Origin: Clostridia bacterium
GTDB lineage: Bacteria > Bacillota > DTU025
DNA: 64,000 bases
Assembly (NCBI GenBank): GCA_034926675.1
Contig: JAYFQW010000028.1
Coordinates: 4,693-68,692, forward strand
Direction of reading: 5' to 3'
A model generated the notes under the pieces. It saw only the letters and a program-made list of their open reading frames with translations, did no database searches and was not told the origin of the DNA. Positions 7,594 through 57,341 of the stretch are shown in pieces. A program made the position numbers and the translations under genes. How positions within the stretch are numbered: position 1 is the stretch's first letter; the number at the start of each line of letters is the position of its first letter.

Positions 7594-7609
7594 TGGCGCC
7601 GTTATTGCA
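7594..7609 (+). promoter_or_regulatory. sigma-54 (-24/-12) promoter TGGCGC-N5-TTGCA upstream of flgB
   Basis: TGGCGCcgttaTTGCA has GG and GC separated by 10 nt. Sits about 48 nt before the flgB ATG, directly downstream of the sigma-54 regulator / kinase pair. Confidence 0.6.
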
Positions 7610-39674: not shown

Positions 39675-40970
39675 TCACTGCTCCTCCTGTTTGAGCTGTT
39701 TGAGGACTCCCGACAGCTTGAAGTTGGTCATGCTCATGATCACAACGAATGCGAAGACGAGCAGCGCGAGAGAGGATGCGTACGCCCACTGCAGTTGCCG
39801 GAAACCAACGTTGTACACCCATGTCATGAGGATGTCAGTCGCGCCTGCTCCCCTACTTCCGGGCACCGGTGGGCCGCCGCTTGTGAGCAGGTAGATGATT
39901 CCGAAGTTGTTAAAGTTGCCTGCGAACATCAGGACCGCCACAGGTGCGATGACTGACATCACGAGTGGGAAGGTGATGCGGGAGAATGAGTCCCACCTAG
40001 ATGCGCCGTCGACCCTTGCGGCCTCATACACCTCATTCGGCACACTCTGAAGCGCTGCCGAAATCACCGACATGTTGAATGGGAAAGCGATCCACACGTG
40101 CGTGAGGAGTACGCTCACTCTTGCCCAGAAGTTGTCCTGGAACCAGGATATCGGGGAAAGCCCGATTGACTTCAGTAGTCCATTGATGGGGCCGAAGCTT
40201 GTGTTGAAGAGGCCGAAAAACACCATGATCGTCACTGCTGAGGGGATCGCCCATGGCAGCATAAGGATGGTTCGGAACATGCGGCGAAGCCGAATCTGCC
40301 TATTCTGCAGAGTGAGGGCCAGAACCAGCCCAACAAGAAATGCAAAGACCGTGCCCAATGCGGCGTACGCGAGGTTCCATGCGAGCACCGTATCGAGTTG
40401 GCCCCTCCATGAGGAGCCCGACTGGAGCAACTTCCTGAAGTTGGAGAAGCCTACCCAGTCGAATCTGCCGGCGGGTGGGCAATGGTACAAGTTGTAGTTG
40501 GTGAAGGCCAGCGCAACGTTGAATAGCAGTGGGATGAGTATTACGAAGGCTGTAAGAGCCATAGCTGGCGCGATGTAGAAGTAGGGTGCGGCGGATCTCA
40601 GGAAAGCGTGCCAGTCGCTTCCGGCGCTGACCTCTTCTGGCAGGCGTCCACATAGGCGCACAAACTGCGCGGTCTTGACGGCATCGGCGACGTTTGCTGC
40701 GTGGAACCACGCGTATGCTCCTACTGCCAGCGCCGAAAGGATGCCAACTAGAAGGATGTGGCGTGAATCAACGAACCTGCCGACGGGGTTCAGAGTCACC
40801 AGGCCGTAGAGAGGATCCCTGAGCGTCGTGATGGCGAGCACCAGGAAGATTGCCTCGATACACATGAATGCCAGAGCCTTCCGCCGCTGCCCATTGTAGA
40901 CCTGCCCTGCACCGGCGATCAGGGCTGAGAGGACTCCGGCGACTTTTGGATTGGGGTTCCGTGCCTTCAC
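39675..40970 (-). CDS. CUT1-family sugar ABC transporter permease (MalF-like, extended N-terminus)
   Basis: EAA loop (EVYEAARVDGASR), polytopic membrane protein. Confidence 0.8.
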   Translation of the reverse strand: MKARNPNPKVAGVLSALIAGAGQVYNGQRRKALAFMCIEAIFLVLAITTLRDPLYGLVTLNPVGRFVDSRHILLVGILSALAVGAYAWFHAANVADAVKTAQFVRLCGRLPEEVSAGSDWHAFLRSAAPYFYIAPAMALTAFVILIPLLFNVALAFTNYNLYHCPPAGRFDWVGFSNFRKLLQSGSSWRGQLDTVLAWNLAYAALGTVFAFLVGLVLALTLQNRQIRLRRMFRTILMLPWAIPSAVTIMVFFGLFNTSFGPINGLLKSIGLSPISWFQDNFWARVSVLLTHVWIAFPFNMSVISAALQSVPNEVYEAARVDGASRWDSFSRITFPLVMSVIAPVAVLMFAGNFNNFGIIYLLTSGGPPVPGSRGAGATDILMTWVYNVGFRQLQWAYASSLALLVFAFVVIMSMTNFKLSGVLKQLKQEEQ

Positions 40971-41126: not shown

Positions 41127-42257
41127 TTACCTCGAATACTTGCGCTCCTGGGCCCTGAATACGCTCACTGCCTCCGTGGCCTCGTCCGCCGTGTCGGTCA
41201 CCACGGAGAATACCAGTCGCACATGTTTCGATAGGCCGTAGTAGTCGGATATCTCGGCTGCAGAGGCATCGACCGCGATCACAGGCTTGTCGGGCGATCT
41301 GCCAAAGAGGTCTGGATGCTTTTCTATGAGGTTGCTGAGAATCTGCACTGGACGAGTCTGGTTCGGGTCCGCAACGATCTGTATCTGCCGCAAATGCTTA
41401 AGCTTCAGGAATTCAGGCATCACGTGGGGGCCGGCAGAGTGGCAGTGGACCTCGCCGATTCCGAAAGCATCAAATGCACGCTGAGTGTATGGAGCGCCGA
41501 ACTCCCGATAGTGGGCGGGGGAACAGAGGCTAGATATGTCTTCCGACACAGCTATCCTGTTTGGAGCGCAGTGCCATGCTGAAAGCTCATGTGCGAACTG
41601 GGGAGCGAATATCTCCCTTATCTGAGCCGACGCGAACCAGATGGTCGCATCCGTAGCAAGTTTCATGAGGCGGTGGACGAATTCCGGGTCTTCGTAGAAA
41701 TCCATGTAGATGGCCTCGCCCCGAAGCGCCCAGGCCAGGTCGAGGGGTGAGTAGTAGCCGCGCCCCAGAGGTATCCTGTATGGAGCGATCTTCTCCAGGG
41801 TGTAGCGGGTAGCGGCGTTGAGGCGAACGAACCAGCGGTTAGCGGGGTCCAGGCTGAGGCGGGCAAGGTCGGATTTCTCCGTGATCACAGGTTTAGCCCA
41901 GCTAGTGTCGTCGCCAAACTCGATATCCCCGGCTACGAATGCGCTGAACTCCCCGATTCCCATGTAGGGAACAACCGATGGAATCCAGTCGTCGTCGATT
42001 CCGCGGCGGATATCCATTAGCTCCGCCTGATACGAAAGGTAGTCGTCGAGATATGAAGAAATCCCTTCCTCAAAATCGTACTGATTGAGAGAAGGGCCCT
42101 TGAGAGTGAGAACAGACGGGAATGTGTAGATGAGTGCGCTGGGAATGCTGGGTGAATCCGACGCCCCGGAGGTTGAGGGAATCCCACTGAAGAAGGCACG
42201 GACTCTCGACATGCAAGATTCCAGCTCGGGTCTGTAGTTCGAAATGTCACAAAACAT
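41127..42257 (-). CDS. URO-D/MtaA-family protein, paralogue of 36193..37290
   Basis: Shares the FYEDPEFVHRLM / LYEDPALVEAVF block and overall architecture with the other URO-D-family gene. HCHSAG variant at the metal-site position. Confidence 0.6.
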   Translation of the reverse strand: MFCDISNYRPELESCMSRVRAFFSGIPSTSGASDSPSIPSALIYTFPSVLTLKGPSLNQYDFEEGISSYLDDYLSYQAELMDIRRGIDDDWIPSVVPYMGIGEFSAFVAGDIEFGDDTSWAKPVITEKSDLARLSLDPANRWFVRLNAATRYTLEKIAPYRIPLGRGYYSPLDLAWALRGEAIYMDFYEDPEFVHRLMKLATDATIWFASAQIREIFAPQFAHELSAWHCAPNRIAVSEDISSLCSPAHYREFGAPYTQRAFDAFGIGEVHCHSAGPHVMPEFLKLKHLRQIQIVADPNQTRPVQILSNLIEKHPDLFGRSPDKPVIAVDASAAEISDYYGLSKHVRLVFSVVTDTADEATEAVSVFRAQERKYSR

Positions 42258-42604: not shown

Positions 42605-43348
42605 GTGAAGGTGTGTGACAGTCATGTCCATGTGGGGGAGTTCTACGACCGAGTGAACCGTTCGGTCCAGCACTATACGCCTCGTGAACTGGTTTCCCAG
42701 ATGGCGGCAGCTGGGGTTGACTTGGCTATCGTGTCGCACATCGGCGCCATCGCCGAGCCCATCGAGGCGAACCGCGAAATGACGCGGATTGCAGCCGAAT
42801 ATCCACAACTTGCGCCGCTTGTTTGGGTGAGCCCCGATGTTATGTCGCCAGATGATGTATTGGACCTGCTTGATCTGGGCTTCAAGGGGCTGAAGTTCCA
42901 TCCCACGGCTGGCCAATACCGGGCAGACTCTCCTGCGCTGAATCCCTACCTGGATTTGTGCCTAAACACGCGCACTGCGGCTCTGTTCCATAGTGCTTCC
43001 GATGAGTACAGCGCTCCGGCGTTCTTCGATGCTGTAGCCTTGGCACACCCGTGCGTTCCGATCGTGCTTGCACATATGAACCTAATGGGACCTGCAGGAG
43101 AGGCGATTGAGGCGGCCGAGGCCCATCCGAATCTGTACCTCGATACAAGCTGGGCTGCGCCTGAGGACATCCTAGAGGCCATATCGCGGCTGGGCGCTGG
43201 CCGTGTGCTCTGGGGCACTGATGCTCCGCTGGGAGGGGCATCCCACTATGCGCAGGATCGGGGTCGCCCAATCATCGAACAGCGCCTCACGCAGGCAGAA
43301 CGAGAGGCGGTTCTGTGGGGGAATGCCGAGAGGCTGTTCAGGCTGTAG
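42605..43348 (+). CDS. metal-dependent hydrolase/decarboxylase of the amidohydrolase_2 family (TIM barrel)
   Basis: HVH N-terminal metal motif (CDSHVHVGEF), LKFHP, LAHMN, GTDAPL, the H/H/H/D ligand pattern of PF04909-type enzymes. Confidence 0.6.
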   Translation: MKVCDSHVHVGEFYDRVNRSVQHYTPRELVSQMAAAGVDLAIVSHIGAIAEPIEANREMTRIAAEYPQLAPLVWVSPDVMSPDDVLDLLDLGFKGLKFHPTAGQYRADSPALNPYLDLCLNTRTAALFHSASDEYSAPAFFDAVALAHPCVPIVLAHMNLMGPAGEAIEAAEAHPNLYLDTSWAAPEDILEAISRLGAGRVLWGTDAPLGGASHYAQDRGRPIIEQRLTQAEREAVLWGNAERLFRL

Positions 43349-44119: not shown

Positions 44120-45994
44120 ATGTGCTCGGTGGGGGTGTGTGGGATGTCCGCCAATAGGCGTACTGGGGACGCCCAAGAGCAAGCGCCTGAACTCGCTGGC
44201 CTTGCAGAAGATGCGCAGAAGGCATGCGATGCCATAGCGGCCGTAGTAGGTCTGGAAGTGGAAATTGTCGACAAGAACCTGCTTCGGATAGCTGGAACTG
44301 GCAAGTACCGTCTCCGCGTAGGGCATTCACTCGAACACGAAGGCGCAGTGTATCGGCAAGTCCTCAGAACTGGTCAGGGCACAATTGTAACCAGGCCCGG
44401 TCTGGAACCCATTTGTGGCCTGTGTTCCAAGTACGGTAGTTGCGACGAGAAGGCGGAGCTTTCTGCACCGATAGCCGTTGAAGGCGATATTGTAGGCGTC
44501 ATCGGGCTGGTCTGCTTCGACCAATCCCAGCGCGCCAGGCTGCTGGACAGGCTTGAGTGTCACAAGAACTTCATCGAACATATGGCCGGTCTGCTTGCAA
44601 GCAAGATTCGAGAGCACGCTCTGTTGGAACAGGAGCGGCGCGCTGCTCAAGAGGTCGCTGCGCTGCTCGATCGGATGGCCGACCCGGTGCTGGCTGTAGA
44701 TCAGAATGGAAGGCTGGTCCATTACAACGTCCCGGCAGGCCGGCTTCTGAATATCCCTGATGGCGATGGCTTCAGTGCTGCCCAGCGGGAGAAACGCATG
44801 GTCTGCAGCACTGAGGAACTGGGGTTCTTGGAAAGCACTCTCAGAACCAAGGAAGGGTTCGAGGAGAAGGAGATGTTTCTCAGTTTCGGGGGAGTCGAGA
44901 AACCCTATCTCGTATCCGCTACGCCGTTGGCATCGGGAGGGCTTATCTACGGTGCTATGGCGGTGATCCGTCCGCTGGGAGAACTCCACCGCTGGGCCTA
45001 CAACTTGACGAATGCCGTGAAGGTATTCACGCTCAACGACATCATCGGGGAGAGCCCTGCGATCCAGCTCATCAAGGAGAAGGCGCTCAAGGTGGCGGGA
45101 GGCAAGTCCAACATCCTGATAACAGGAGAAAGCGGCGCCGGGAAGGAGCTGCTCGCAAGGGGAATACACAATGCGAGCGGCCGTGCTGACCGGCCGTTTG
45201 TCGCGGTGAACTGCGCCGCGATTCCAGATACTCTCCTCGAGAGCGAGCTTTTCGGGTACGAAGAAGGAGCATTCACAGGCGCGAGAAAAGGCGGCAAACC
45301 TGGAAAGTTCGAACTCGCCGACGGGGGGACGATCTTTCTCGATGAAATAGGCGAGATGCCCATCCATCTCCAGGCGAAGCTGCTCAGAGTGCTCGAAGGC
45401 TGGGAAGTGGAGCGTGTTGGAGGCACTCGGTCAAGGCCCATCGATGTGCGACTCATGGCCGCCAGCAATCAGGACCTCGAAGGGAAGATCGCTTGCAGAG
45501 AGTTTCGCGAGGACCTGTATTTCCGTTTGAACGTAATACCTTTGCAGGTCCCGCCGCTGCGCGACAGAGAAGGAGACACTCCGCTCTTGGCACGCTACTT
45601 CATCCGAAAGCATGCCGCCTTGCTCAACAAGAAGATCGAGGGGATGGAACCCAGCGTGGCTAGGTTGTTCGAGAGCTACTGGTGGCCCGGCAATGTCCGC
45701 GAGCTTGAGAACACAATCGAGCATGCCGCCAACATCGAGAGTACATCCATCATTCATGAACGGAGTTTGCCAGAGACGATTCGCACCAGGGCATCGAGCG
45801 TCTCGAGGAAGTTGCGCGGCCATGCGGGCATTGACGACATGGAGGCGCGCCTGATAGAAAAAACCCTGGGGCGATACGGGTACAGCTACCGTGGCAAGCA
45901 ACAGGCGGCGCGCGAACTGGGAATCGGCATTGCCACCCTTTATCGGAAAATGGCTCGCTATGGCATCCCGGGAGTCCATGCCGCAAAACGATAG
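44120..45994 (+). CDS. sigma-54-dependent transcriptional activator (GAF/PAS sensor - AAA+ - Fis HTH); start uncertain
   Basis: GESGAGKE Walker A, canonical GAFTGA (EEGAFTGA), C-terminal HTH (QQAARELGIGIATLYRKMARYG). N-terminal sensor with a Cys cluster (PICGLCSKYGSC). Confidence 0.85.
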   Translation: MCSVGVCGMSANRRTGDAQEQAPELAGLAEDAQKACDAIAAVVGLEVEIVDKNLLRIAGTGKYRLRVGHSLEHEGAVYRQVLRTGQGTIVTRPGLEPICGLCSKYGSCDEKAELSAPIAVEGDIVGVIGLVCFDQSQRARLLDRLECHKNFIEHMAGLLASKIREHALLEQERRAAQEVAALLDRMADPVLAVDQNGRLVHYNVPAGRLLNIPDGDGFSAAQREKRMVCSTEELGFLESTLRTKEGFEEKEMFLSFGGVEKPYLVSATPLASGGLIYGAMAVIRPLGELHRWAYNLTNAVKVFTLNDIIGESPAIQLIKEKALKVAGGKSNILITGESGAGKELLARGIHNASGRADRPFVAVNCAAIPDTLLESELFGYEEGAFTGARKGGKPGKFELADGGTIFLDEIGEMPIHLQAKLLRVLEGWEVERVGGTRSRPIDVRLMAASNQDLEGKIACREFREDLYFRLNVIPLQVPPLRDREGDTPLLARYFIRKHAALLNKKIEGMEPSVARLFESYWWPGNVRELENTIEHAANIESTSIIHERSLPETIRTRASSVSRKLRGHAGIDDMEARLIEKTLGRYGYSYRGKQQAARELGIGIATLYRKMARYGIPGVHAAKR

Positions 45995-46119: not shown

Positions 46120-46215
46120 GCGGCGTTCCTTGACGTCAGAAGCCTCGCTATTTCGACAGTGATAACTGCCCAGCTAAACGCGGGTGTTGTCGAACTTGTG
46201 GTCTAGATGTGGCAT

Positions 46216-46231
46216 GGCGTGGAAATTGCAT
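46216..46231 (+). promoter_or_regulatory. sigma-54 (-24/-12) promoter TGGCGT-N5-TTGCA
   Basis: tGGcgtggaaattGCa with GG/GC spacing of 10, about 105 nt upstream of the 46337 ATG and downstream of the sigma-54 activator gene. Confidence 0.55.
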
Positions 46232-46336: not shown

Positions 46337-47728
46337 ATGTCTCGGAGGATGGTATGGGGACCGACATTCGAGGAGATGCTGCATCCCGACAAGATCGACC
46401 CTCAGATCCGGAAGCAGGCTCTCGCAGCAAGGGAGAGCGATCCGCTCAACGAGATCAACCTGTACAATATCACCTGGAAGCGGCCGGATGGGAAGCCGTG
46501 TTACGTTGTCATTCCCAAAAAACTGACCGGAGTAGATGCCAACATCATAGCTCTGTACGGTCGGGACTTCCCCACGGGTTCACACAAGGTGGGGGCAACG
46601 TACACGGTTACGGTCGAAAAACAGCTCAATGGGGAGATCACTCCAGGTGAGCACACAGTGGTGTTCCCGTCCACAGGCAATTACGGAATAGGCGGCGCCT
46701 GGGTGGGGCCCCGCATGGGCTACGACTCCTTGGTGATTCTTCCTGAACTGATGAGCGCGGAGCGTTTCCAGAAGATCGAAGGATACGGGGCAAGGTACAT
46801 CAAGACAACGGGCTGTGAATCCAGCGTGAAAGAGATATACGATAAGTGCTGGGAGCTTAAGCGCCAACCCGAGATACGGGTGCTCAACCAGTTCGAAGTG
46901 ATGGGCAACTACAGATTCCACTACTACGTCACGGGCAATACCGCAGTTGAACTTGTTGCCGATCTCGCAAAGCGCGGAATAGGCAACGGCAGGTGCGCGG
47001 CGTTCGTCTCGGCGATGGGCTCTGGAGGCACCATAGCCGCAGGCGATAGGCTGAAAGAGGTCTTCCCCGAACATCGCATAGTCGGCCTTGAGCCGATTCA
47101 GTGCCCGACCCTTTTCAACAACGGATACGGCGACCACGACATCCAAGGCATTGGCGACAAGCACGCCACATGGATTCACAACGTTATGAACATGGATTGC
47201 CTCATGTGCATCGATGATATGGAGAGCAAGTGGGGCCTGCAACTGCTGACAGATCCTGTGGGCATGGAGTATCTGGCGCAGAATGCAGGAATCCCAGAAG
47301 AGACTGTACGCGAGATGTCCACCTTGTTTGGCATCTCAGGTGTATGCAACGTTCTGGGCGCGATCAAGACAGCTAAGCACTACAGGATGACCAGCAGCGA
47401 AAACGTGGTCACTGTGCTTACCGACACCATAGATCGTTACCATTCGGTGATGAGCGCATTGGATGACAAATTCGGCAAGATGGATGCAGGCAAGGCAGAA
47501 GCCCGCTTGTCAGGCATCTTCCGGAGCGCCAAGCTTGACTACATTCAAGAGGGAACTGTTAACAATCGCGATAGATGGTTCAACCTCAAGTACTACACCT
47601 GGGTTGAGCAACAGGGCAAGACAGTTGCTGAGCTGAACGCGCAGAGAAGCCAGGCCTGGTGGGCTGAAGAGCGGAGTAAAGTCCTTGATATCAACGACCG
47701 CCTTTGCCAAGCGCGAAAGCGGTCATGA
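46337..47728 (+). CDS. PLP-dependent enzyme, fold type II (TrpB/CysK/ThrC superfamily), 463 aa, specificity unknown
   Basis: PLP-lysine motif PTGSHKVG and glycine-rich phosphate loop [21 protein letters not shown]. Confidence 0.65.
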
Positions 47729-48965
47729 GAGCGGTGATGAGAGAGGAGTGATCACGATTAGCTTCCCTTTCGAGAAAGCATTGGATCAAGCAGAAGGATA
47801 CCGAAAGCAGATCTCCGGATTCCTGCGCGACATGGTCGCGATACCAGGTGAAAGCTGTCAGGAGAAGGCAGTGATCCAGCGGATCGGAGAGGAAATGGAG
47901 GCCGTAGGTTTCGACAAGATCGAGATCGATCCTATGGGCAACATCCTCGGACGCATTGGAACTGGCAAGACCCTGATAGCGATGGACGCACACGTTGACA
48001 CCGTTGGCATTGGAGACCCAAGCCTCTGGGAAGTCGATCCGTACAAGGGATACGAGGACGAGAACATCATCATGGGCAGAGGCGCCAGCGATCAGAGGGG
48101 CGGCATGGCCTCGATGGTGTATGCCGGCAAGATAATCAAGGATCTGGGCCTTGAGGGCGACTATACTTTCCTGGTGACCGGAACCGTTCAGGAAGAGGAC
48201 TGCGATGGCCTCTGTTGGCAATACCTCATCCACGATGGCGGAATTCGGCCCGACTTCGCCGTGATTACCGAGCCGACATCACTGAACATCTACCGTGGGC
48301 AGCGTGGACGTATGGAGATAAAGGTGACGACTAAGGGCATAAGCTGCCACGGATCCGCTCCTGAGCGGGGCGACAACGCGATCTACAAGATCGCCCCCAT
48401 CCTTCAGGAACTGCGTGCCCTAAACGAGAACCTTCATGTAGATTCGTTCCTGGGCAAAGGGAGCCTGACCGTATCCGAGGTCTTCTTCAGCTCGCCTTCC
48501 AGGTGCGCAGTTGCTGACGGGTGCTGGATCTCCGTCGACCGCCGGTTAACAGACGGGGAGACGTGGGAAATGGCTCTCGAGCAGATAAGGAATCTTCCGG
48601 CAGTTAAGGAAGGAAAGGCCGAGGTGTCGATGTACGGGTACGACCAGCCGTCATATACAGGTCTGGTGTATCCCACAGAGTGCTTCTTCCCGACCTGGGT
48701 CCTTCCCGGCGACCACATGGTCTGTGAGACGCTAGTCGATGCCTACCGTGGTCTATTCCAGAAGGATCCCCTCGTGGACAAATGGACATTTTCCACCAAT
48801 GCAGTGTCCATCATGGGGCGATACGATATCCCTTGTATAGGATTCGGCCCCGGGCACGAGGATCAGGCCCATGCTCCCAACGAGAGGACCTGGAAGGACG
48901 AACTGGTGAAAGCGACTGCCATGTACGCGATGATTCCCTTGCTCTATACCTCGAAAACCGCCTGA
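47685..48965 (+). CDS. M20-family metallohydrolase (ArgE/DapE/carbamoylase/YgeY-like); start uncertain (TTG at 47685 or GTG about 47748)
   Basis: M20 metal-binding motifs (AMDAHVDTV; [10 protein letters not shown]), dimerisation domain region. Confidence 0.75.
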
Positions 48966-49005
48966 CGATCCAGGCAGAAGAACTGTGTATGGAGGAATTT
49001 GAGCA

Positions 49006-49992
49006 ATGCAGACGATTTTCAGGGGAAAACACTTCATCACCTTGGAGGAATGGTCGCTTGAGGAGATCGATACGCTTCTGGATGTGTCGTATGAGCTGAA
49101 GCGCGATTTTGCCATGGACAGGCCCACAGATTACCTGCCGCGCAAGACCGTGTTCCTCATGTTCTTTGAGCAGTCTACGCGCACTCGAAACTCAATGGAA
49201 GCCGGCATTACGCAGTTGGGCGGACATGCCCACTTCCTCGATGCCAGCAACATGCAGATCGCGCACGGCGAAGTCGCCAAGGATACGGCAGTCATCCTCT
49301 CGAGAATGGGCCACGCCATAGCCTGCAGGAACTGCTTCTGGAAGCAGGGGAATACGTATCTTCGCGACATGGCGAAGGCTTCGACAGTCCCCATCATCAG
49401 CATGCAGGACGATCTGTATCACCCACTTCAGGCCATTGCAGACCTGATGGCGATCCAGGAGAAGAAGGGCAGGAACACCAGGAACCTTAAAGTCTCCGTG
49501 ATATGGGCGTACGCCACAACCCACAAGAAGCCCATCTCCGTTCCTGTGAGCCAGGTCCTTCTCTTCCCGAGATACGGAATCGATGTCACGCTTGCCTATC
49601 CAGAGGGATACGATCTGCCCGACTGGGTAATCGAGAAGGCCAGGAAGAACGCTGGCGCCCACGGCGGATCCTTCAGGATAACTCATGACCAGGAAGAAGC
49701 CTATCGAGATGCCGACGTCGTATTCCCCAAGAACTGGGGCAGCTGGGTGACCAACGAGAGCACGGCAGTGGTTGACTCGCTTCTCGAAGCGAACAAGGGC
49801 TGGAAGTGCACCAGCGCCCGGATGGCGCTGACGGCGAAGGATTCACTATACATGCACGCCCTGCCTGCCGACCGCCTCAACGAAGTAGAGGACGCCGTGA
49901 TCGACGGGCCTCACTCAGCCATCTACGATGAGGCAGAGAACAGGCTTCACACAGCAAAGGCCGTCATGGCGCTTACCATGGGGGGAAGATAG
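49006..49992 (+). CDS. carbamoyltransferase of the ATCase/OTCase superfamily with a non-canonical second-substrate site
   Basis: Carbamoyl-phosphate motifs STRTRNS and HPLQ are present. The ornithine SMG loop is replaced (DVVFPKNWGSW) and HCLP is replaced by HALP. Confidence 0.75.
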   Translation: MQTIFRGKHFITLEEWSLEEIDTLLDVSYELKRDFAMDRPTDYLPRKTVFLMFFEQSTRTRNSMEAGITQLGGHAHFLDASNMQIAHGEVAKDTAVILSRMGHAIACRNCFWKQGNTYLRDMAKASTVPIISMQDDLYHPLQAIADLMAIQEKKGRNTRNLKVSVIWAYATTHKKPISVPVSQVLLFPRYGIDVTLAYPEGYDLPDWVIEKARKNAGAHGGSFRITHDQEEAYRDADVVFPKNWGSWVTNESTAVVDSLLEANKGWKCTSARMALTAKDSLYMHALPADRLNEVEDAVIDGPHSAIYDEAENRLHTAKAVMALTMGGR

Positions 49993-50064
49993 CGAGAGGA
50001 GGGGTAGCGGCAAGCACACTACAGAGCATTCAGGTAAGGTGCAAGCTTCGTAGGTCAAGCTTAT

Positions 50065-50613
50065 GTGATACCGGAGTCGGCATGGATCCAGTCCCTGATG
50101 CCGGGGACCCGTTTCCACTGGGGGTTTTTCGTGGCTCTGGCGGCGGCCCTGCTGGCGTATGTGATTCTCTGGCGGACCAGCCTTGGCTTCAAAATCCGGG
50201 CTGTGGGCATGAACCGGAGCGCTGCCCGGTATGCGGGAATCGACGAGAAGAAGATATTCGTGATCGTCTTCCTGATCAGCGGAGCGTTTGCCGGCCTGGC
50301 CGGGTTCATGGAGGTCAATGGCATCCAGCACATGGCCGTCCAGGGGTTCAACCCGGTGCTGGGCTCGGAGGGGATAGGGATAGCCATCCTGGGCAACGCT
50401 CACCCTCTAGGAATTGTGCTCTCCGGCCTGCTGTTCGGGGCGCTCAAGGTGGGTGGAAACCTGCTGACGCAGACGACCACCATTCCATCTAGCATCATCG
50501 GGATCATGGAAGGCTTCGTGATGCTCTTTGTGGTTCTGTCGTACTTCGTCCAAAAGAAGATCATCCTGGCCCAGCGCAAGAGAGACCTGGTGAAAGGGGA
50601 GGAGAGCGTATGA
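50065..50613 (+). pseudogene. N-terminally truncated ABC transporter permease (RbsC/Bmp-type), C-terminal half only
   Basis: 182 aa beginning 72 nt after the preceding stop. Contains the mid-protein RAVGMNRSAARYAGI motif but lacks the N-terminal TM helices. Confidence 0.45.
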
Positions 50614-51530
50614 TGATCACTGGCCTTCTGGCAAGAGCACTGCAGATGAGCACTCCCCTGTTTCTGGGATCCCTGGCTGAGGTCTTCGTTGAGCGGACCG
50701 GCGTGATGAATATGGCCATCGAAGGGATCTTCCTGATGGGCGCCTGGGGAGGCTTCGTCGGGGCGTATCTGACAAAGAGCCTGTTCTGGGGCTTGATAAT
50801 GGCCATGACGGTCGGCGTCGCGGTAGGCGCGGTATACGCCTACATTACGGTGAGACTGAAACAGCACCAGATCGTGACGGGCGTGGCGCTCAATATCCTG
50901 TCGGCGGGAATCAGTGTCTACCTGTACAGGGTGCTCTTCGGAGTGCCTCTGATCCCCCTGACGGTCGACTCGCTCAGGAGGATGCCCATTCCGTTGCTTT
51001 CCCGGATCCCGATCATCGGTCCGGCGCTGTTCAACCAGAATATCCTGACCTACCTGGCCCTGGCCCTGATGCCCATAGGATACTGGATCCTGTTCAGAAC
51101 CCGTCTTGGGCTTGTTGTCCGTTCGACCGGGGCTAACCCGGAGGCGGTGGACGCCGCGGGAACAAACGTTGAAAGGACGCAGTTCCTGGCTGTTCTCGCT
51201 TCGAGTGCCCTGGACGGCCTGGCCGGGGCGTTCTACTCAATCGGGTTCCTTGGTATGTTCTCAGACGACATCATTGGCGGTCGAGGGTGGATCGCGTTCG
51301 CAATCTGCTTCCTCGGCAACTGGAATCCTATTGGCGCTCTGATCGGAGGACTCATATTCGGACTGGCAGACAGTCTGGCAGTGCTGCTGCAGACCTCTGG
51401 CATCAGGATCGTGCCCAACGAGCTTCTGATCGCACTGCCGTATATACTGACTATCATCGCTACGATAACCAGGAAGCAGTTCAACGTGCCCGCGTATCTG
51501 GGAGTCCCGTACGTGAAGGAACGGAGCTAG
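50610..51530 (+). CDS. ABC transporter permease (RbsC/Bmp-type)
   Basis: Polytopic membrane protein, VVRSTGANPEAVDAAGTNV motif typical of this permease family. Confidence 0.7.
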   Translation: MMITGLLARALQMSTPLFLGSLAEVFVERTGVMNMAIEGIFLMGAWGGFVGAYLTKSLFWGLIMAMTVGVAVGAVYAYITVRLKQHQIVTGVALNILSAGISVYLYRVLFGVPLIPLTVDSLRRMPIPLLSRIPIIGPALFNQNILTYLALALMPIGYWILFRTRLGLVVRSTGANPEAVDAAGTNVERTQFLAVLASSALDGLAGAFYSIGFLGMFSDDIIGGRGWIAFAICFLGNWNPIGALIGGLIFGLADSLAVLLQTSGIRIVPNELLIALPYILTIIATITRKQFNVPAYLGVPYVKERS

Positions 51531-51544
51531 GAACGAAGCAGGCG

Positions 51545-52291
51545 CTAAGCTAAGGCTTGACCGGGCGGACATGCTGCTTGAGTCCTCCGCGAGATGGTTT
51601 CGCACTTCTCTCTATGGACGCACACATCGCACATGCTATAGGCTCTGAGCCTTTCTGGGAGCGTCGGGCCCATGGGAAACATGACTGACACCGACTTGAG
51701 CGGGCTCATCATGAACGAGGAGGACAGTGTGACTCCGATTCTGCGGGCGTCGAGCAGCGAGAACAGCACTGCCTGGGACTCTATGGGGATGGCATGGCAC
51801 CCAGGCGCGAGCCTGGGGCCTATGTCAACCTGGAGGCGTTCCGCTTCCGCGCGTCTGGCGCAGACCGCTCGGAACTCGCCTGTCATGCGACGAAGGAGAA
51901 TAGTGCCCATCGTGTCGAGGACGACTGCGGCGAGGGGGTCGCCCGAGGCGAACACCTCCTGCACTCTGTGCTCCAGGTTCGGGCCTATGGTTCCGATGCC
52001 GATGGCTAAGTGTGTTGCCCCTTGAAGCAATGGGCCTGAACATGAGATGTCGAAGCCCCCTGCTAGGCTTATCGAGTCACGCGTGATGGCGGTAATCCTG
52101 CTGACCGTTGAGATGAGCATGGGCGTTGCGAGCCCTGCGGAGATTGCGACGTTGGCCTCTTCGATGGATTGGAGCACTGATTGAAGCGCAGCGCCGGATG
52201 ACTCGCCGCCGATGGCGGCGAGCACCTCTTCAGGCGGAATAGCAGTAGCCTGCATATGTATGATTCGGCAGTCAGCGTATGGCTCTATCAT
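51545..52291 (-). CDS. methionine-synthase activation-domain-like protein (Met_synt_B12-type, candidate SAM-dependent corrinoid reactivation)
   Basis: RLAPGCHAIP and SFMMSPLKSVSVMF resemble MetH activation-domain motifs RPAPGYPACP and SFAMWPGASVSGWYF. Lies 4 nt downstream of the RACo gene. Confidence 0.5.
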   Translation of the reverse strand: MIEPYADCRIIHMQATAIPPEEVLAAIGGESSGAALQSVLQSIEEANVAISAGLATPMLISTVSRITAITRDSISLAGGFDISCSGPLLQGATHLAIGIGTIGPNLEHRVQEVFASGDPLAAVVLDTMGTILLRRMTGEFRAVCARRAEAERLQVDIGPRLAPGCHAIPIESQAVLFSLLDARRIGVTLSSSFMMSPLKSVSVMFPMGPTLPERLRAYSMCDVCVHREKCETISRRTQAACPPGQALA

Positions 52292-52306
52292 TGTTGTGAC
52301 AGCCTT

Positions 52307-54292
52307 TCATAGTGGAACGTGGGACTGGGCTTCAAAGGTCATGCAGTCGGTGAAGACTTCCATGAACCTAGGATCCGCGCTTAACTCGATGTGCTCGATT
52401 ACGCGCGCAAGGCGGAGCGCCTCGCGGTAGAAGACGCTGTTCGCGACTGCTAGTGCCGCTCCTTCCCCTGCCGCGTTTCCGATCGACTCGATCCTGGCGC
52501 GTTGAGCGGCCGGCAGAAGGCCTATGGCCACTGCAGCCCGGTTATCCAGGTATGTGCCGAAGGCGCCTGCGAGGACTACTCGCTCAAGATCGCCCGCTCC
52601 AATTCCCGCCTGCGCAAGCAGGATCTCTGCGCCTGCCCTGATTGCTCCCTTTGCGAGCTGCAGCTCCCGAACATCGCGCTGGGTGAGGGCCACCTCGGGT
52701 GTGCTCTCCTTCGCTAGCTTCAGGATGAATCGAGCGCCGCCGGGTCCGTCTACGAGCCGCTTGTCGCCAGCGCCCTGGGCGTAGGCGCCATTGCCCAGGA
52801 TCAAACCTGCTTCGCGCAGTGCAGCCACCAGGCTCACTAACCCCGATCCGCACACCCCGATTGGTTCTCCGCCGCCGATCACGTGCAGCTCAATGCCTGC
52901 GTCCGTCTGCAGATGCGGCAGATGCCTGTCTGAAGTGCGCGGCTTGCGCAGCCCAGCCCAGTCGATGGCCCCATCGGAGGCGATCATCCCGCACGAGATG
53001 CTTACCCCCTCAAAGGCCGGCCCGGCTGCAGTGGAGCAGGCAAGCACTCGTCCATTCGCCGCGAGCAGTATCTCACCATTAGTGCCGATGTCGATAAGGA
53101 GCATGGGGCGTGAGTGCTCGTGGACGCCCGCTGCTACTGCTGCGGCAAGTGCGTCGGAGCCGACGAATCCGGCTATGTTCGGGAGAAAGAAGAAACGTCC
53201 AAGGGGGTTCACCGAGTGAACACCCACATCAAGCGGTGACATGAGTCCACAGTCAATCGCCGCCGGAGCGTATGGAAGCCTTGCTAGCCTGCCGGGTGCG
53301 ATGCCTAGGAACAGATGGTGCATGCAGGTGTTCCCAACGGCTCCCGTGAGGTAGATCTGCTTACTGCTCACCCCTGCTTGTGAGGCGAGCCTGGCTATGA
53401 GGCTGTCGATTGCGTCAACTGCCTCCGAACGCAACTCAGCGAGGCCGCCGGGGCTCTCGGAGTAGGCGATGCGCGAGATGAGGTCAGCGCCATGCCTGGA
53501 TTGCGGATTCAGCGTTCCCGTTGCGCCCACAATGTGGCCAGAGGACAGATCGATGAGATACGCCACGAGGGTGGTAGTGCCGATATCAAGTGCGATCCCA
53601 TAGGCGGAGGCGCGTACAGCGGACGTGCAGGCGGATGTGCAGGCGGCGGATGTGCAAGCGGCGCCCGCGGCTGCTGTCTCCGCCACATCGATCAGCTGGC
53701 CATCTACGGATACTCCGTGCAGCCGCAGGGCGCCCGTGCTTCCCGTGCCTGAGAAGGCCTGAGCCGCTCGCCTGATGAGGGGCAATACGCCCTGGCCGGC
53801 GTTGAACGCCGACGCGACGCGTTCCCAGTCGGAGGCGGCTGGCTTCTCCAGGTCGATCAGGACATCGCGCATCGTCACCCGAGGTTCGAATGCCGTTCGG
53901 GCGTCAGCAGACGGAGCGGCATTCGCTCCGCCCTCTGCCAGGGCCGGGTCTCCGTGCAGAAGCACGAAGGCAGAACGCTCAATATCTGGGCCGGCGGCGC
54001 CTATGATCACTTCGGAGTCGCCCGCGATTGCTGCCTGGCACGCGAGACGCACGCCGCCGGCGAGTTCAGCCTCGGTGAGCAATTCTCGCTCAGCGTCGGT
54101 CGGAGCCGAGAGTCCGCCAGTCGCTGATACCTTGCATCTACCGCACACTCCTCGACCGGCGCACGGGGCATACACGCCCACACCCGCACGCCTCAATATG
54201 TCGAGCAGCAAGGCGCCTGGTTCTGCAATTGCGCAGATCTCGGTATGTGCGCTTGGCTGCGCGGCGCGTCCTACGATTCGAACAGAGGTCAA
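52307..54292 (-). CDS. reductive activator of corrinoid proteins (RACo/RamA-like: N-terminal [2Fe-2S] ferredoxin + ASKHA ATPase)
   Basis: Plant-type ferredoxin Cys pattern (CAGRGVCGRCKV...LACQ). Large ASKHA-like domain with an Ala/Cys/Thr/Ser-rich low-complexity insert. Confidence 0.7.
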   Translation of the reverse strand: MTSVRIVGRAAQPSAHTEICAIAEPGALLLDILRRAGVGVYAPCAGRGVCGRCKVSATGGLSAPTDAERELLTEAELAGGVRLACQAAIAGDSEVIIGAAGPDIERSAFVLLHGDPALAEGGANAAPSADARTAFEPRVTMRDVLIDLEKPAASDWERVASAFNAGQGVLPLIRRAAQAFSGTGSTGALRLHGVSVDGQLIDVAETAAAGAACTSAACTSACTSAVRASAYGIALDIGTTTLVAYLIDLSSGHIVGATGTLNPQSRHGADLISRIAYSESPGGLAELRSEAVDAIDSLIARLASQAGVSSKQIYLTGAVGNTCMHHLFLGIAPGRLARLPYAPAAIDCGLMSPLDVGVHSVNPLGRFFFLPNIAGFVGSDALAAAVAAGVHEHSRPMLLIDIGTNGEILLAANGRVLACSTAAGPAFEGVSISCGMIASDGAIDWAGLRKPRTSDRHLPHLQTDAGIELHVIGGGEPIGVCGSGLVSLVAALREAGLILGNGAYAQGAGDKRLVDGPGGARFILKLAKESTPEVALTQRDVRELQLAKGAIRAGAEILLAQAGIGAGDLERVVLAGAFGTYLDNRAAVAIGLLPAAQRARIESIGNAAGEGAALAVANSVFYREALRLARVIEHIELSADPRFMEVFTDCMTFEAQSHVPL

Positions 54293-55266
54293 TGCCGTCC
54301 CTCCATCATGAATGCGTCGATGTTCTCGTGCGGGGTCTCATAGGGGAGGTCGCAACCGGTGCTGAGTATGAAGTTATCACGTTCCGCCATGGAGTCAAGC
54401 AATGCGCGCACTGCCCGAGCCACGTTCTCCGGGTCCTGCTGCACCATGACGCCGACTGGATCGACGTTGCCGATCAGCACGACCTCTGGGTCAACCACCC
54501 TGGCCGCTGCCGGGAAGTCCACCGGGGAATCGAGGGATAGCCCCTGTGCACCTGTTGAACACATCTCGCGCAGGAGGTGCGTGGTGTCGCCGCATATGTG
54601 TAAGACCATAATGTCGGCCATTCCGGGAGAGGCGATGAGTTCCTTGACGTACGTTCCACAGAATTCATGGAAAGATCTGGGGGATAGGAACGTGGCTGTG
54701 GGTTCGAGGATTGCGACCATGTCGGCTCCGGCGTCAGCCAGGGCCCGGGCATACCTGATGCACAGGTTCTGGCAGAATCTCACTGTACCATGAACGAGCT
54801 CGGGATCGGTGATGGTGGCGACCGCAAGCTCCGAGGCGCCCATGAGCAGACCGGCCAGGGTGAACGGTCCAGTTATGTATCCGGCTTTCGGGATCGAGAT
54901 GCTGCGGCTCATCAGTTCCATCGTCTTGACATATGCTGCTATCCTGGCATCGTCCATAGGATCGAGAGCATTCAGAAGGGCAAGATCGGTCACCTGGGTC
55001 ACTGGGTGCTCTTCCACCGTTGGCGATTCGAACGGAGGGTATCTCACAGGAAGGCCGAGGGCCCCCGCTTCTAGGGAAAGATCCATCATAAAGAAGATCG
55101 CATCGGGAGAGAACCGCTCTGCAGCCCGGGCCACGGTCCTGGCGTGCAGACCGGGGTTGAACTCGTTCTGCTTGAGAGAGGAGCCGGTGAGGCGTGCCCC
55201 AGGGTAGCCCAGCAGGGGCACGACAAGTCGCCGCTCTGATGATCGCACCAGATCAATGAGCCTCAT
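54289..55266 (-). CDS. MtaA/MtbA-like methylcobamide methyltransferase (URO-D family)
   Basis: DAIFFMMD, ILEPTATFLSP, zinc motif HICGDT with a second Cys (EMCSTG). Start at ATG 55266 (MRLIDL) after an AAAGGAGG RBS; the listed ORF extends to 55356. Confidence 0.7.
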   Translation of the reverse strand: MRLIDLVRSSERRLVVPLLGYPGARLTGSSLKQNEFNPGLHARTVARAAERFSPDAIFFMMDLSLEAGALGLPVRYPPFESPTVEEHPVTQVTDLALLNALDPMDDARIAAYVKTMELMSRSISIPKAGYITGPFTLAGLLMGASELAVATITDPELVHGTVRFCQNLCIRYARALADAGADMVAILEPTATFLSPRSFHEFCGTYVKELIASPGMADIMVLHICGDTTHLLREMCSTGAQGLSLDSPVDFPAAARVVDPEVVLIGNVDPVGVMVQQDPENVARAVRALLDSMAERDNFILSTGCDLPYETPHENIDAFMMEGRH

Positions 55267-55288
55267 TGAGCTGCCTCCTTTCCGCGCG

Positions 55289-55924
55289 TCACGCGTGAAC
55301 GAGCAGTCGCGCCAGGTCAACTGCCGAGCTTGCATCTGGAGAGTAGCCGTCCGCACCGATCTCCTTGGAGTAGCGGTCTGTAACTGGTGCGCCGCCTATG
55401 ATCACCTTGACCTGGTCCCTCAGGCCTGCAACCTTCAGGGATTCAATGGTAGCTTTCATGGCGGGCATTGTCGTTGTGAGAAGGGCGGACATCCCCAGAA
55501 TGTCGGGCCTCTCGTTCTTCACGGCATCAACGAACTTGCCAGGCGGCACATCAGTGCCCAGGTCAATCACTTCGAACCCAGCGCCTTCGAACATCATCTT
55601 AACAAGGTTCTTGCCGATGTCGTGAAGATCGCCCTTGACAGTGCCGATTACGAGCTTGCCGGCAAATGAAGCTCCCGTCTTCGCCAGGATCGGCCTGATT
55701 AGGTTCAGCCCCGCATACATCGCCCGTGCGGCCACCATCACCTCAGGGACGTAGATCTCGTTCCTCTTGAACTTGGCGCCAACGACCAACATCGGAGCAA
55801 TCAGGCCTTCATTCAGAATCTCCTGAACATCAACGCCATCTGCGAGCGCCTTCTCGGTGATCTCCTTCACCTTCGGCGCGTTTCCCGCATCAAGCGCCGC
55901 GCACATTTCGCTGTAGTCGAACAA
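55289..55924 (-). CDS. cobalamin-binding corrinoid protein (MtaC/MtbC-like; B12-binding_2 cap + Rossmann B12 domain)
   Basis: DxHxxG cobalamin-binding motif (DLHDIGKN), GGAPVT loop, about 210 aa. Confidence 0.8.
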   Translation of the reverse strand: MFDYSEMCAALDAGNAPKVKEITEKALADGVDVQEILNEGLIAPMLVVGAKFKRNEIYVPEVMVAARAMYAGLNLIRPILAKTGASFAGKLVIGTVKGDLHDIGKNLVKMMFEGAGFEVIDLGTDVPPGKFVDAVKNERPDILGMSALLTTTMPAMKATIESLKVAGLRDQVKVIIGGAPVTDRYSKEIGADGYSPDASSAVDLARLLVHA

Positions 55925-56033
55925 CAGAACAACCTCCCGTCAATGGTCAGTGATCTTTGCCAACTCGAGTGTCCAATGCTAGCTTAGAGCATTACAGTGA
56001 CTGTTTCCATGGACACATCTGTGGTTTCATGCA

Positions 56034-57341
56034 CTATCCTGCTGAAATCATCCGTTTGCGGTAGTCTCGCGGAGACAGCCCTTCCGCCCGTTTGAAACAC
56101 CTGCTGAAGTGGGCAGGGTCCTGAAAGCCAGTCCTCTCCGCTACTTCTGCAATTCCACATCCTGCCACGGTCAGCAGATGCTTCGCCTCTTCAATGCGCA
56201 TCGCTGTGAGGTAATCCATGACGGATGTGCCCGTTTCCTGCTTGAACAGGTGGCTGAGATGGGATGGGCTGAGGCAGACGTAGGAGGCTACGTCGGCCAC
56301 CGAGAGTTTGTTGGAGAAGTTGCGGCGCATGAAGGCGGCACACTCTCGGATTACACCCTTGCTTACGTGTGCGCACCCGGCGTCAGTATTGTTGTGGCGG
56401 TTGTGTCCTGTTCCAACCGCCGCCCTCGTTTCCGATTCGCGCCCGCCACGGGTGCTGTCGGCTGCATCTGGGACTGCAGTGAGGAACTCGTCGAGCACGC
56501 GAACGATCCAGGCACACAATTCCTCGAACACCGCACAGCGCGAAAGCAGTCCTACTGACTCGTAGTTGAGCCCTAGGATGCGCTCTGGGTCTGCTCCTGC
56601 CTCCACAGCCGCTCTGGCCAGGAATACGGCGAGTTCCAAGAGTCGTGCTTTGATGATATCGATTCGGGTGGGCTCAGTGAGGAAGATGTCGGCGAGCATG
56701 GTATTGAGGATTCGCTTCGCTTCTGAACGCTGCCTTGCGCGGACTGCGCGCATCAGATCGCGCTCTCTGCGAGGGGAGTACATTCCCCAGGTGCAGCAGG
56801 CCTTCTCAAGCCGTTTGCGCTCCTGTATCTCCTCTCCCAGCAGCCGTTGCTGCCTGTAGATCTCGTTTCTCTGACGCAGTGCGAGGTCGTTCGACTGAAC
56901 AACGTGGGAAGCTGCCGCGAACAGCAGTTCCGCAGCTGCCTGCACTCTTACAGTGGAAACGTGCTCGATTTCGCCTACTGCTTCCGCTAGGCGGATTCTG
57001 TCGATGCAGAGGTCGGCCGTGCGGGCGGACACGTCCTGAACGAAGTAGTCGTCAGGCTCCCACATGATGACCTGTCCGCATACGATGGACCCAAGCAGGC
57101 CGCCGCCAAGGGCGGTTTCGTCTGCCACGAGAGGCGCCGCCCAACACACCAGCCCAGCATGGCATTGGAACACGTAGAGGTCTCCGAGGTTCTCGGCCTC
57201 CCGGCCCGCGCGAGCATACGAACGGGAGCATCTGTCCCGGCCCTCCTGCGAGGATCGCACTAGTCTGCAGAGGGAACAATGCTCCCAGTCGCGCGGCGCC
57301 ATCACCGGTTCGCCTGAAGCGCCGATTACCCTGGCGACCAT
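56034..57341 (-). CDS. AraC-family transcriptional regulator with an N-terminal PocR-like sensory domain
   Basis: C-terminal AraC HTH (LSVADVASYVCLSPSHLSHLFKQETG...). N-terminal roughly 170 aa PocR-like domain (FQCHAGL region); PocR domains are associated with B12-related regulons. Confidence 0.65.
   Translation of the reverse strand: MVARVIGASGEPVMAPRDWEHCSLCRLVRSSQEGRDRCSRSYARAGREAENLGDLYVFQCHAGLVCWAAPLVADETALGGGLLGSIVCGQVIMWEPDDYFVQDVSARTADLCIDRIRLAEAVGEIEHVSTVRVQAAAELLFAAASHVVQSNDLALRQRNEIYRQQRLLGEEIQERKRLEKACCTWGMYSPRRERDLMRAVRARQRSEAKRILNTMLADIFLTEPTRIDIIKARLLELAVFLARAAVEAGADPERILGLNYESVGLLSRCAVFEELCAWIVRVLDEFLTAVPDAADSTRGGRESETRAAVGTGHNRHNNTDAGCAHVSKGVIRECAAFMRRNFSNKLSVADVASYVCLSPSHLSHLFKQETGTSVMDYLTAMRIEEAKHLLTVAGCGIAEVAERTGFQDPAHFSRCFKRAEGLSPRDYRKRMISAG

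Follow-up and report, generated by a model that had tools for sequence, protein, structure and literature searches.

A CysK-like enzyme beside YgeY and a short YgeW-lineage transcarbamylase: a probable variant terminal module of anaerobic urate degradation in a Clostridia bacterium

The anaerobic, reductive degradation of urate was reconstituted in two 2025 studies (Li et al., PMC12507026; Liu et al., bioRxiv 10.1101/2025.04.24.650524). In this pathway XdhD or XdhAC reduces urate to 2,8-dioxopurine, YgfK or UacX dearomatises the ring system, and SsnA and HyuA open the rings to yield 2,3-diureidopropionate. YgeW then phosphorolyses one ureido group to carbamoyl phosphate, from which carbamate kinase forms ATP; YgeY hydrolyses the other ureido group, leaving 2,3-diaminopropionate (DAP); and YgeX converts DAP to pyruvate and ammonia. 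The YgeW, YgeY, and YgeX reactions were established experimentally in Escherichia coli and Clostridium sporogenes (PMC12507026; bioRxiv 10.1101/2025.04.24.650524). Here we describe a three-gene operon at positions 46337–49992 of a 64,000-nt stretch (the window) of contig JAYFQW010000028.1 from a Clostridia bacterium (assembly GCA_034926675.1). It encodes a CysK-like pyridoxal 5'-phosphate (PLP) enzyme, an M20 hydrolase, and a short transcarbamylase, and with moderate confidence we read it as a variant terminal module of the reductive urate/purine (2,8-dioxopurine) pathway. The original prediction, made from the sequence alone, had likened this trio to ygeW-ygeX-ygeY and called that module enigmatic and uncharacterised; the likeness has stood, and the second description has been overtaken, as ygeWXY has since 2025 been known as the last three steps of reductive urate degradation. 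On this reading the operon is a known pathway in variant form and not a new kind of system. What appears to be new is a widespread CysK-like family in the place of YgeX, a short YgeW-lineage transcarbamylase misnamed ornithine carbamoyltransferase (OTC), and a possible serine-forming branch.

The three open reading frames (ORFs) of the predicted operon are all present, co-directional on the + strand, and fill 46337–49992. The first (46337–47728, +) encodes a 463-aa fold-type-II CysK-like enzyme matching PF00291, hereafter PLP463; the second (47748–48965, +) a YgeY-family M20 metallohydrolase, a ureido-group amidohydrolase whose start is uncertain; and the third (49006–49992, +) the 328-aa, YgeW-related transcarbamylase with OTCace_N and OTCace domains. 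The longest ORF of the hydrolase gene, 47685–48965, opens with TTG at 47685 and overlaps the PLP463 gene. Its start is more likely GTG at 47748, because the SFPFEK N-terminus then aligns with residue 4 of E. coli YgeY and the gene model of a relative agrees. With this start the intergenic gaps are 20 nt (PLP463 to hydrolase) and 40 nt (hydrolase to transcarbamylase), which, together with strong ribosome-binding sites before the first and third genes (AGGAGG and GGAGG), indicate a single operon. Compared with two related metagenome-assembled genomes (MAGs) carrying the same trio, all three genes show dN/dS of 0.05–0.08; they are under strong purifying selection, and function is retained.

The hydrolase is the most readily assigned of the three. 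It scores 698 bits on TIGR03526 (cut-off 321.5) and 649 on NF009555 (cut-off 321), covering profile positions 2–394/395, and shares 67% identity with E. coli YgeY across 398 residues, with the Pfam domains Peptidase_M20 and M20_dimer and a dN/dS of 0.07–0.08. It passes the YgeY equivalog test and is assigned as a true YgeY orthologue.

The transcarbamylase contains the motifs STRTR, YHPLQ, FPKNWGSW, and YMHALPAD, in agreement with the STRTR, HPLQ, KNWGSW, and HALP read originally. Aligned to Pyrococcus furiosus OTC, it has KNWGSW for DVWASMG and HALP for HCLP, and none of the canonical ornithine-binding residues are found. It falls below every curated NCBIfam cut-off, including those for OTC itself (TIGR00658, 235 vs 280.85 bits; NF001986, 237 vs 306), for AOTCase (220 vs 288), for PTCase (203 vs 500), and for the knotted YgeW (TIGR03316, 172 vs 500; NF005538, 185 vs 453). 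The enzyme is 68 residues shorter than E. coli YgeW and, like every short enzyme in the alignment, lacks the YgeW inserts AALDDGY, QRPA, ANDHEG...AQNA, and ISGVSC (the last of which follows HCLPAD in E. coli) as well as the C-terminal tail. The short enzymes and YgeW nevertheless share [PA]K[NS]W in place of the OTC DxxxSMG, and H[ACP]LPAD. A neighbour-joining tree, rooted on PyrB, was built from 44 sequences, with AOTCase, SOTCase, and PTCase references left out; in it the short enzymes (the window clade, a Chloroflexota clade, and two singletons) cluster with YgeW in 99 of 100 bootstraps, to the exclusion of ArgI, P. furiosus OTC, and the OTC-like gene of one locus. The YgeW-type "YTCase" motifs are S[LT]RT, HP[TMF]Q, and H[AVC]LP (Barba et al. 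2013; PMC4016543, Table 1); STRT and HALP fit this signature, while HPLQ departs from it and relatives have HPMQ. The predicted structure is of little help in choosing among subfamilies: pLDDT is 70 overall and below 50 for residues 47–93, and Foldseek ranks OTC, AOTCase, and YgeW together. On its motifs and monophyly the enzyme is placed in the YgeW-type lineage, in keeping with the non-ornithine specificity originally predicted.

Members of the short family are 73–94% identical across Bacillota, Synergistota (Thermovirga, Aminobacterium, Dethiosulfovibrio), Lentisphaeria, and others, are uniformly 327–328 aa long, and are uniformly named "ornithine carbamoyltransferase" in public records, a name we regard as a systematic misannotation. 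A short enzyme with 73–78% identity fills the YgeW slot in complete clusters of Clostridium (Xdh-UacX-SsnA-HyuA-TCase-YgeY-YgeX, where TCase is the short transcarbamylase), Zhaonella (XdhD-SsnA-...-YgeY-TCase-YgfK-carbamate kinase-amidohydrolase), and Syntrophaceticus (...-YgeY-TCase-carbamate kinase-Xdh-UacX-amidohydrolase-ABC transporter). Two loci, L026 (2514–3490) and L056 (5591–6640), additionally encode a second divergent carbamoyltransferase with an HSLP motif and 26–27% identity, adjoining the YgeW-type one; it resembles the "pseudo-ATCase" found beside ygeW homologues (Barba et al. 2013).

PLP463 matches PF00291 (PALP) as its sole Pfam domain. It scores 115–120 bits on the CysK/CysM models TIGR01139 and TIGR01136, whose cut-offs are ~345–351, and is classed as a member of the superfamily but not as CysK, the fold and PLP-binding residues being predicted to be common to both. 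No match at E ≤ 1e-5 was found to the diaminopropionate ammonia-lyase models TIGR03528, TIGR01747, and NF006058, on which type of model a genuine Clostridium YgeX scores 572 bits. The original statement that the PLP enzyme differs from that of the E. coli module is therefore upheld: the fold type and the operon setting are shared, but the window enzyme is CysK-like and not a diaminopropionate ammonia-lyase. Its predicted structure (pLDDT 87, pTM 0.90) has a CysK core with a flexible yet invariant loop at 260–281, and among solved structures its fold comes closest to those of beta-cyanoalanine synthase, CysK, Fn1055 (the cysteine hydroxyl lyase of Fusobacterium nucleatum; PDB 5b53 and 5b55), and CBS, at 22–28% identity. 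PLP463 resembles Fn1055 and CysK/beta-cyanoalanine synthase in fold and catalytic residues. It differs from them in its helical extensions, ~60 N-terminal and ~90 C-terminal residues beyond the CysK core, which are absent from all solved structures, and in a genomic context of purine catabolism instead of sulphur metabolism. The conserved positions include the Schiff-base Lys84, the STGNY carboxylate (Asn) loop, Gln185, the GSGGT phosphate loop, and Ser334, which faces the pyridine nitrogen; with these CysK-type residues, the enzyme would be expected to act, by way of aminoacrylate, on an alpha-amino acid that bears a leaving group at the beta position.

The family is large. In a one-genome-per-species collection at least 584 of 600 candidate stretches were confirmed as members; identity within the family is about 60–90%, and the best 120 matches are 63–90% identical. 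It carries no functional name in the records. A literature search on urate, diaminopropionate, albizziin, and cysteine synthase topics returned nothing relevant to it, and an exact-sequence look-up did not find the window PLP463 on public record, while the identical transcarbamylase is recorded only on 2-kb contigs.

We mapped 80 PLP463 loci by tblastn with reference proteins, 39 of which have at least 5 kb on both sides and are here called well-flanked. Purine-cluster markers occur in 30 of these 39, across phyla: a ThrC-like PLP enzyme in 21, a transcarbamylase in 18, SsnA and carbamate kinase in 15 each, YgeY in 13, and Xdh in 10. F420/LLM reductase genes also occur in some PLP463 loci. The relatives thus sit in purine contexts and not in an arginine or pyrimidine context, which would have told against the original prediction. 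Order PLP463-YgeY-transcarbamylase, as opposed to W-X-Y in E. coli, is kept in the close relatives L005, L009, and L010, the last of which also has the activator discussed below. In the Desulfobacterales (L074, L082, L085) PLP463 and YgeY are instead followed by a true knotted YgeW, 64–69% identical to that of E. coli, beside a tripartite ATP-independent periplasmic (TRAP) transporter. As the same trio is found with either the short enzyme or a true YgeW, the two transcarbamylases appear to be interchangeable within it. Two further clusters (L040 and L062) have PLP463 as their sole PLP enzyme.

An independent scan of metagenome loci anchored on YgeY points the same way. Of the 32 loci flanked by at least 4.5 kb on either side, 16 contain YgeX, 11 a PLP463-family enzyme, 5 neither, and none both (Fisher p = 7e-5, or 7e-4 without near-identical E. 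coli contigs; the loci are phylogenetically non-independent). All 16 YgeX loci contain a knotted YgeW, while the 11 PLP463-family loci usually have a ThrC-like gene before PLP463 and YgeY and the short transcarbamylase after it. The PLP463 genes of this set form a second subfamily that is 38–45% identical to the window enzyme and shares its full architecture. Based on gene position, anti-correlation with YgeX, and the conserved CysK-type catalytic residues, PLP463 most likely takes the place of YgeX in the trio.

Replacement of this kind has precedent in the pathway, as non-orthologous enzymes fill its steps by lineage, among them UacX and UacY in Clostridioides difficile and an F420-dependent reductase in Chloroflexota (PMC12507026). 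The Chloroflexota F420/LLM clusters of that study are the same clusters that hold PLP463. The 2025 surveys assigned YgeX and YgeW on the presence of a Pfam domain alone, PF00291 and PF00185 respectively (PMC12507026), so that CysK-like and ThrC-like enzymes and the short transcarbamylase would not have been told apart from YgeX and YgeW.

The ThrC-like partner is a ~415-aa PLP enzyme with an N-terminal CxxC...CxxC zinc ribbon, encoded immediately ahead of PLP463 in the majority of clusters without YgeX, and it passes the NCBIfam "threonine synthase" model NF006050 (337 vs cut-off 303). It was observed in L011–L014, L026, L029, L037, L038, L043, L053, L055, L056, L058–L061, L064, L067, L068, and L070, and also in L090, L092–L102, L105–L110, L113, and L115. 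Serine hydroxymethyltransferase (SHMT) genes lie between or beside the ThrC-like and PLP463 genes in L011, L012, L090, L092, L093, L097, and L109, with FolD also encoded in L090, the Thermovirga-like locus; no SHMT gene was found in any YgeX-type locus examined.

Several lineage-specific features of PLP463 loci were also recorded. Chloroflexota clusters encode a conserved ~226–245-aa protein (c6) with no NCBIfam match between PLP463 and SsnA; ORF clustering places it in 15 loci, and the loci noted for it are L037–L039, L046–L048, L058–L060, L063, L064, L067, L068, L070, L071, L075, L078, L084, and L086. In the Desulfobacterales loci L057, L074, L081, L082, L085, and L088, a 557–656-aa protein (c31) precedes PLP463 and a TRAP (DctPQM) transporter is divergently encoded; L057 seemingly has PLP463 and the transporter without YgeY or YgeW. 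In a Syntrophaceticus schinkii MAG (L092, 7236–8590), PLP463 is split into two ORFs of 272 and 182 aa within an otherwise complete cluster, suggesting a frameshift or a pseudogene.

Upstream of the trio lies a gene (44120–45994, +) for a YgeV-like sigma-54-dependent activator made up of a sensory region at the N-terminus, an AAA+ domain for sigma-54 interaction, and a Fis-type helix-turn-helix (Pfam Sigma54_activat at 227 bits, AAA_lid_14, and HTH_8). It is 36% identical to E. coli YgeV at full length, including the sensory region (residues 33–614), and in E. coli the regulator gene ygeV adjoins ygeW. Homologues with 50–78% identity immediately precede PLP463 or the ThrC-like gene in L010–L014. 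Between the activator and the operon is a candidate sigma-54 (-24/-12) promoter, TGGCGTGGAAATTGCA, at 46215–46230 (+), ~107 nt before the PLP463 start codon. The pattern TGGC-N7-TTGCW has only two matches in the 64 kb, which is the chance level (41 of 100 shuffles reach two), so its evidential value rests on position: each match closely follows a sigma-54 activator gene and precedes genes on the + strand, the second (7594–7609) adjoining a flagellar sigma-54 regulator. No sigma-70-like site was found in the intergenic region upstream of the operon. The window contains no rpoN; that the organism uses sigma-54 is implied by the presence of another activator of this type in the flagellar cluster. 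Sigma-54 control of the operon, as originally predicted, is probable. The flagellar match follows genes for a sigma-54 response regulator (3843–5540) and a PAS histidine kinase (5602–7485) and lies just upstream of fliF-fliG-fliH-fliI, which fits sigma-54-dependent flagellar expression.

Taken together, these features suggest the following scheme. The YgeV-type activator would switch on the sigma-54 promoter in response to a presumed signal; the activator and the promoter motif themselves are seen in the sequence. The short transcarbamylase, judging by homology, shared motifs, and gene context, would phosphorolyse one ureido group of 2,3-diureidopropionate to give carbamoyl phosphate and a mono-ureido aminopropionate, and a carbamate kinase encoded elsewhere could convert the carbamoyl phosphate to ATP. 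The YgeY orthologue, given its 67% identity to the characterised E. coli enzyme, would hydrolyse the remaining ureido group to yield DAP, CO2, and NH3. PLP463 would then remove the beta-nitrogen substituent via alpha-aminoacrylate, producing pyruvate and NH3 or, by addition of water, serine, and so pass the C3 skeleton to central metabolism. The simplest reading is that PLP463, like YgeX, consumes the DAP made by YgeY. In its ureido phosphorolysis to carbamoyl phosphate and ATP the scheme resembles the arginine deiminase pathway, in which a catabolic OTC acts with carbamate kinase, but the trio lacks the ornithine/citrulline-binding motifs and arc genes.

A number of observations weigh against this assignment. 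Neither the PLP463 family nor the short-transcarbamylase clade has a characterised member. In Clostridium spp. a divergently transcribed PLP463 gene adjoins a cluster that already holds YgeX, and where both occur the two may not be redundant. PLP463 is most often paired with the ThrC-like enzyme, which is absent from the window, and for about a quarter of the well-flanked loci the surroundings are unrelated. Loss of ygeX in a C. sporogenes mutant leads to accumulation of diaminopropionate, and the pathway intermediate has been proposed to have the D configuration, while CysK-type enzymes normally act on L-amino acids (2025 literature). Genes for Xdh, YgfK/UacX, SsnA, HyuA, YgeX, the ThrC-like enzyme, and carbamate kinase were not found in the 64-kb window (tblastn at E < 1e-15 and Pfam scans of large ORFs), nor were the pathway genes found beside the trio in the close relatives L005 and L009. 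Finally, the ATP-binding cassette (ABC) transporter adjoining the trio is truncated.

The last two points call for a closer description of the locus. A complete 2,8-dioxopurine cluster is not present in the window, although all of its parts adjoin the same gene families in other genomes; the hyuA, carbamate kinase, ygfK, ssnA, and xdhD genes of the E. coli cluster (ygeV/ygeW-ygeX-ygeY(-hyuA-yqeA) and its surroundings) have no counterparts near the trio, and Pfam scans of large ORFs and tblastn with references likewise detected no F420 reductase in the 64 kb. An Amidohydro_2 gene upstream of the activator (42605–43348) was considered as a pathway member and rejected, since it occurs in no related locus. 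Downstream of the transcarbamylase, relatives encode a BMP-type transporter in the order Bmp-ABC-permease-permease. In the window only a remnant of the first permease is left (50059–50613, +; residues 171–352 of a 359-aa protein), fused to the intergenic region at a deletion breakpoint at 50058; it covers BPD_transp_2 profile positions 130–269 only and is 69% identical to residues 174–352 of permease 1 in L090. The second permease (50610–51530, +) is intact, with a full-length BPD_transp_2 domain and 72% identity to L090 permease 2, and tblastn found neither the Bmp binding protein nor the ABC ATPase in the window. Up to 50058 the window matches contigs L007 and L008 at 99% identity; beyond that point L008 runs on into a Bmp gene. 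By comparison with L007, L008, and L090, ~3 kb is missing, a stretch expected to encode the Bmp protein, the ABC ATPase, and the N-terminal half of permease 1. The breakpoint reflects either a genuine deletion, with loss of transporter function, or a join made during assembly. As to the locus as a whole, the first half of the pathway may be encoded at another site in the genome, this lineage may live on ureido acids produced by other organisms, or the module may be in early decay, although the strong purifying selection on the trio argues against the last.

Of the other explanations, the one that fares best concerns the product of PLP463 and leaves the rest of the pathway as it is. PLP463 may be a serine-forming "hydroxy-lyase," in which water replaces the beta-amino group of DAP or the beta-ureido group of albizziin, so that the pathway ends differently from that of YgeX; serine would go on to glycine and one-carbon (C1) units via SHMT and FolD, or to pyruvate via serine dehydratase. 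We give this a substantial but less than even chance. CysK-type enzymes typically carry out beta-replacement and not pyruvate release, and Fn1055 replaces the thiol of cysteine with water, forming serine and H2S. The invariant Asp274 of PLP463 (GIGDKH) aligns with Asp232 of Fn1055 (GISDEF), where canonical CysK has Ala (GIGAGF), so that at the GIG-D/A position PLP463 is like Fn1055 and unlike CysK; Fn1055 is also the best PDB match to this segment. Asp232 was identified by comparing 5b53 with the D232N mutant 5b55, which according to its entry title is complexed with the aminoacrylate intermediate. SHMT neighbours PLP463 or its ThrC-like partner in 7 loci but is seen in none of the YgeX loci, and FolD occurs in the Thermovirga-like cluster. 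Yet a single aligned residue is weak evidence, and SHMT is found in only 7 of ~60 PLP463 loci and not in the window. Asp274 and the SHMT neighbours hint that the product could be serine rather than pyruvate. More broadly, and only tentatively, we suggest that PLP463, often together with the ThrC-like enzyme, may constitute a second terminal branch of purine degradation that replaces YgeX in Chloroflexota, Synergistota, many Bacillota, and Desulfobacterales, converting DAP or albizziin to serine by hydrolytic beta-replacement on a CysK fold with an Fn1055-like Asp.

A second possibility, which we consider doubtful but worth retaining, is that the trio is a stand-alone module for scavenging imported 2,3-diureidopropionate, albizziin, and related N-carbamoyl compounds released by other purine degraders, and does not terminate a urate pathway of the organism's own. 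It would account for the trio occurring alone, under purifying selection, in the window and in L005, L009, and L010. The Desulfobacterales trio with a true YgeW has a TRAP carboxylate transporter and a regulator as neighbours, and neither Xdh nor SsnA is encoded within 10 kb of it; the Thermovirga-like locus comprises transporters, a hydantoinase-like gene, and the trio, again without Xdh or SsnA; in the 99%-identical strain, a Bmp binding protein directly follows the transcarbamylase. The view is limited to 64 kb, however, and the upstream genes may sit elsewhere, as does the carbamate kinase gene of C. sporogenes, which is encoded away from the cluster (2025 literature). Moreover, the transporter beside the trio is broken in the window genome.

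That the trio is a decaying, functionless remnant of a once complete urate cluster is improbable. The ~3-kb downstream deletion, which takes the binding protein, the ATPase, and half a permease, and the absence of the upstream pathway genes and carbamate kinase from the window could be read in this way, but the three ORFs are intact with good ribosome-binding sites, their dN/dS is low against two relatives that keep the same genes, and the activator and promoter are retained.

The original prediction left open whether the pathway is catabolic, with ATP gained from carbamoyl phosphate, or biosynthetic; gene context favours the former and gives no support to the latter. A biosynthetic route, in which a CysK-like diaminopropionate synthase of the SbnA/VioB kind and the carbamoyltransferase would build beta-ureidoalanine or a related block, is very improbable and was rejected on motifs, HMM cut-offs, and gene context. 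The CysK homologues SbnA and the O-ureidoserine synthase DcsD do appear among the weak PDB and NCBIfam matches, but PLP463 reaches 48 bits on the SbnA model, whose cut-off is 350, there are no non-ribosomal peptide synthetase, siderophore, or SbnB/VioK-type neighbours, an orthologue of the catabolic YgeY is in the same operon, and the genes that accompany the relatives encode Xdh, SsnA, carbamate kinase, and purine deaminases. Least probable of all is an ordinary catabolic OTC of arginine/citrulline catabolism, which the public names and the best PDB sequence match (P. furiosus OTC) would suggest, but which was rejected on the same three grounds, given the scores below both OTC cut-offs, the PKNWGSW and Ala substitutions for DxxxSMG and the Cys of HCLP, the placement with YgeW, and the lack of arginine deiminase or arc genes in any context examined.

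The remainder of the window encodes a flagellar cluster, sugar-type ABC transporters, URO-D-like and corrinoid methyltransferase genes, and a GH65 enzyme. The corrinoid methyltransferase set (51545–57341, −) comprises a Met_synt_B12-like protein, a RACo-type activase with a 2Fe-2S domain, a URO-D/MtaA-like methyltransferase, a B12-binding protein, and a PocR-AraC regulator, and weak URO-D-like genes (36193–37290 and 41127–42257) occur among the sugar-type ABC transporter genes. Two BPD_transp_1 permeases (39675–40970 and 62042–63490) are unusually long, at 431 and 482 aa by their predicted starts, with the domain C-terminal only. The GH65 phosphorylase (58688–62125) is 1145 aa long, with ~330 extra N-terminal residues by its predicted start.

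The reductive urate pathway, solved in 2025, is under development for urate-lowering probiotics, and the window and ~160 related loci indicate that in much of the anaerobic flora of digesters and the environment the last enzyme is a different one and the transcarbamylase is short and misannotated. The assignment offers a concrete, testable function for a large orphan family of PLP enzymes, corrects a systematic "ornithine carbamoyltransferase" annotation, and bears on which ureido group is removed first and on the stereochemistry of the intermediates. It could also reveal a serine-forming end to the pathway; if this is correct, purine carbon would enter metabolism as serine, glycine, and C1 units instead of pyruvate.

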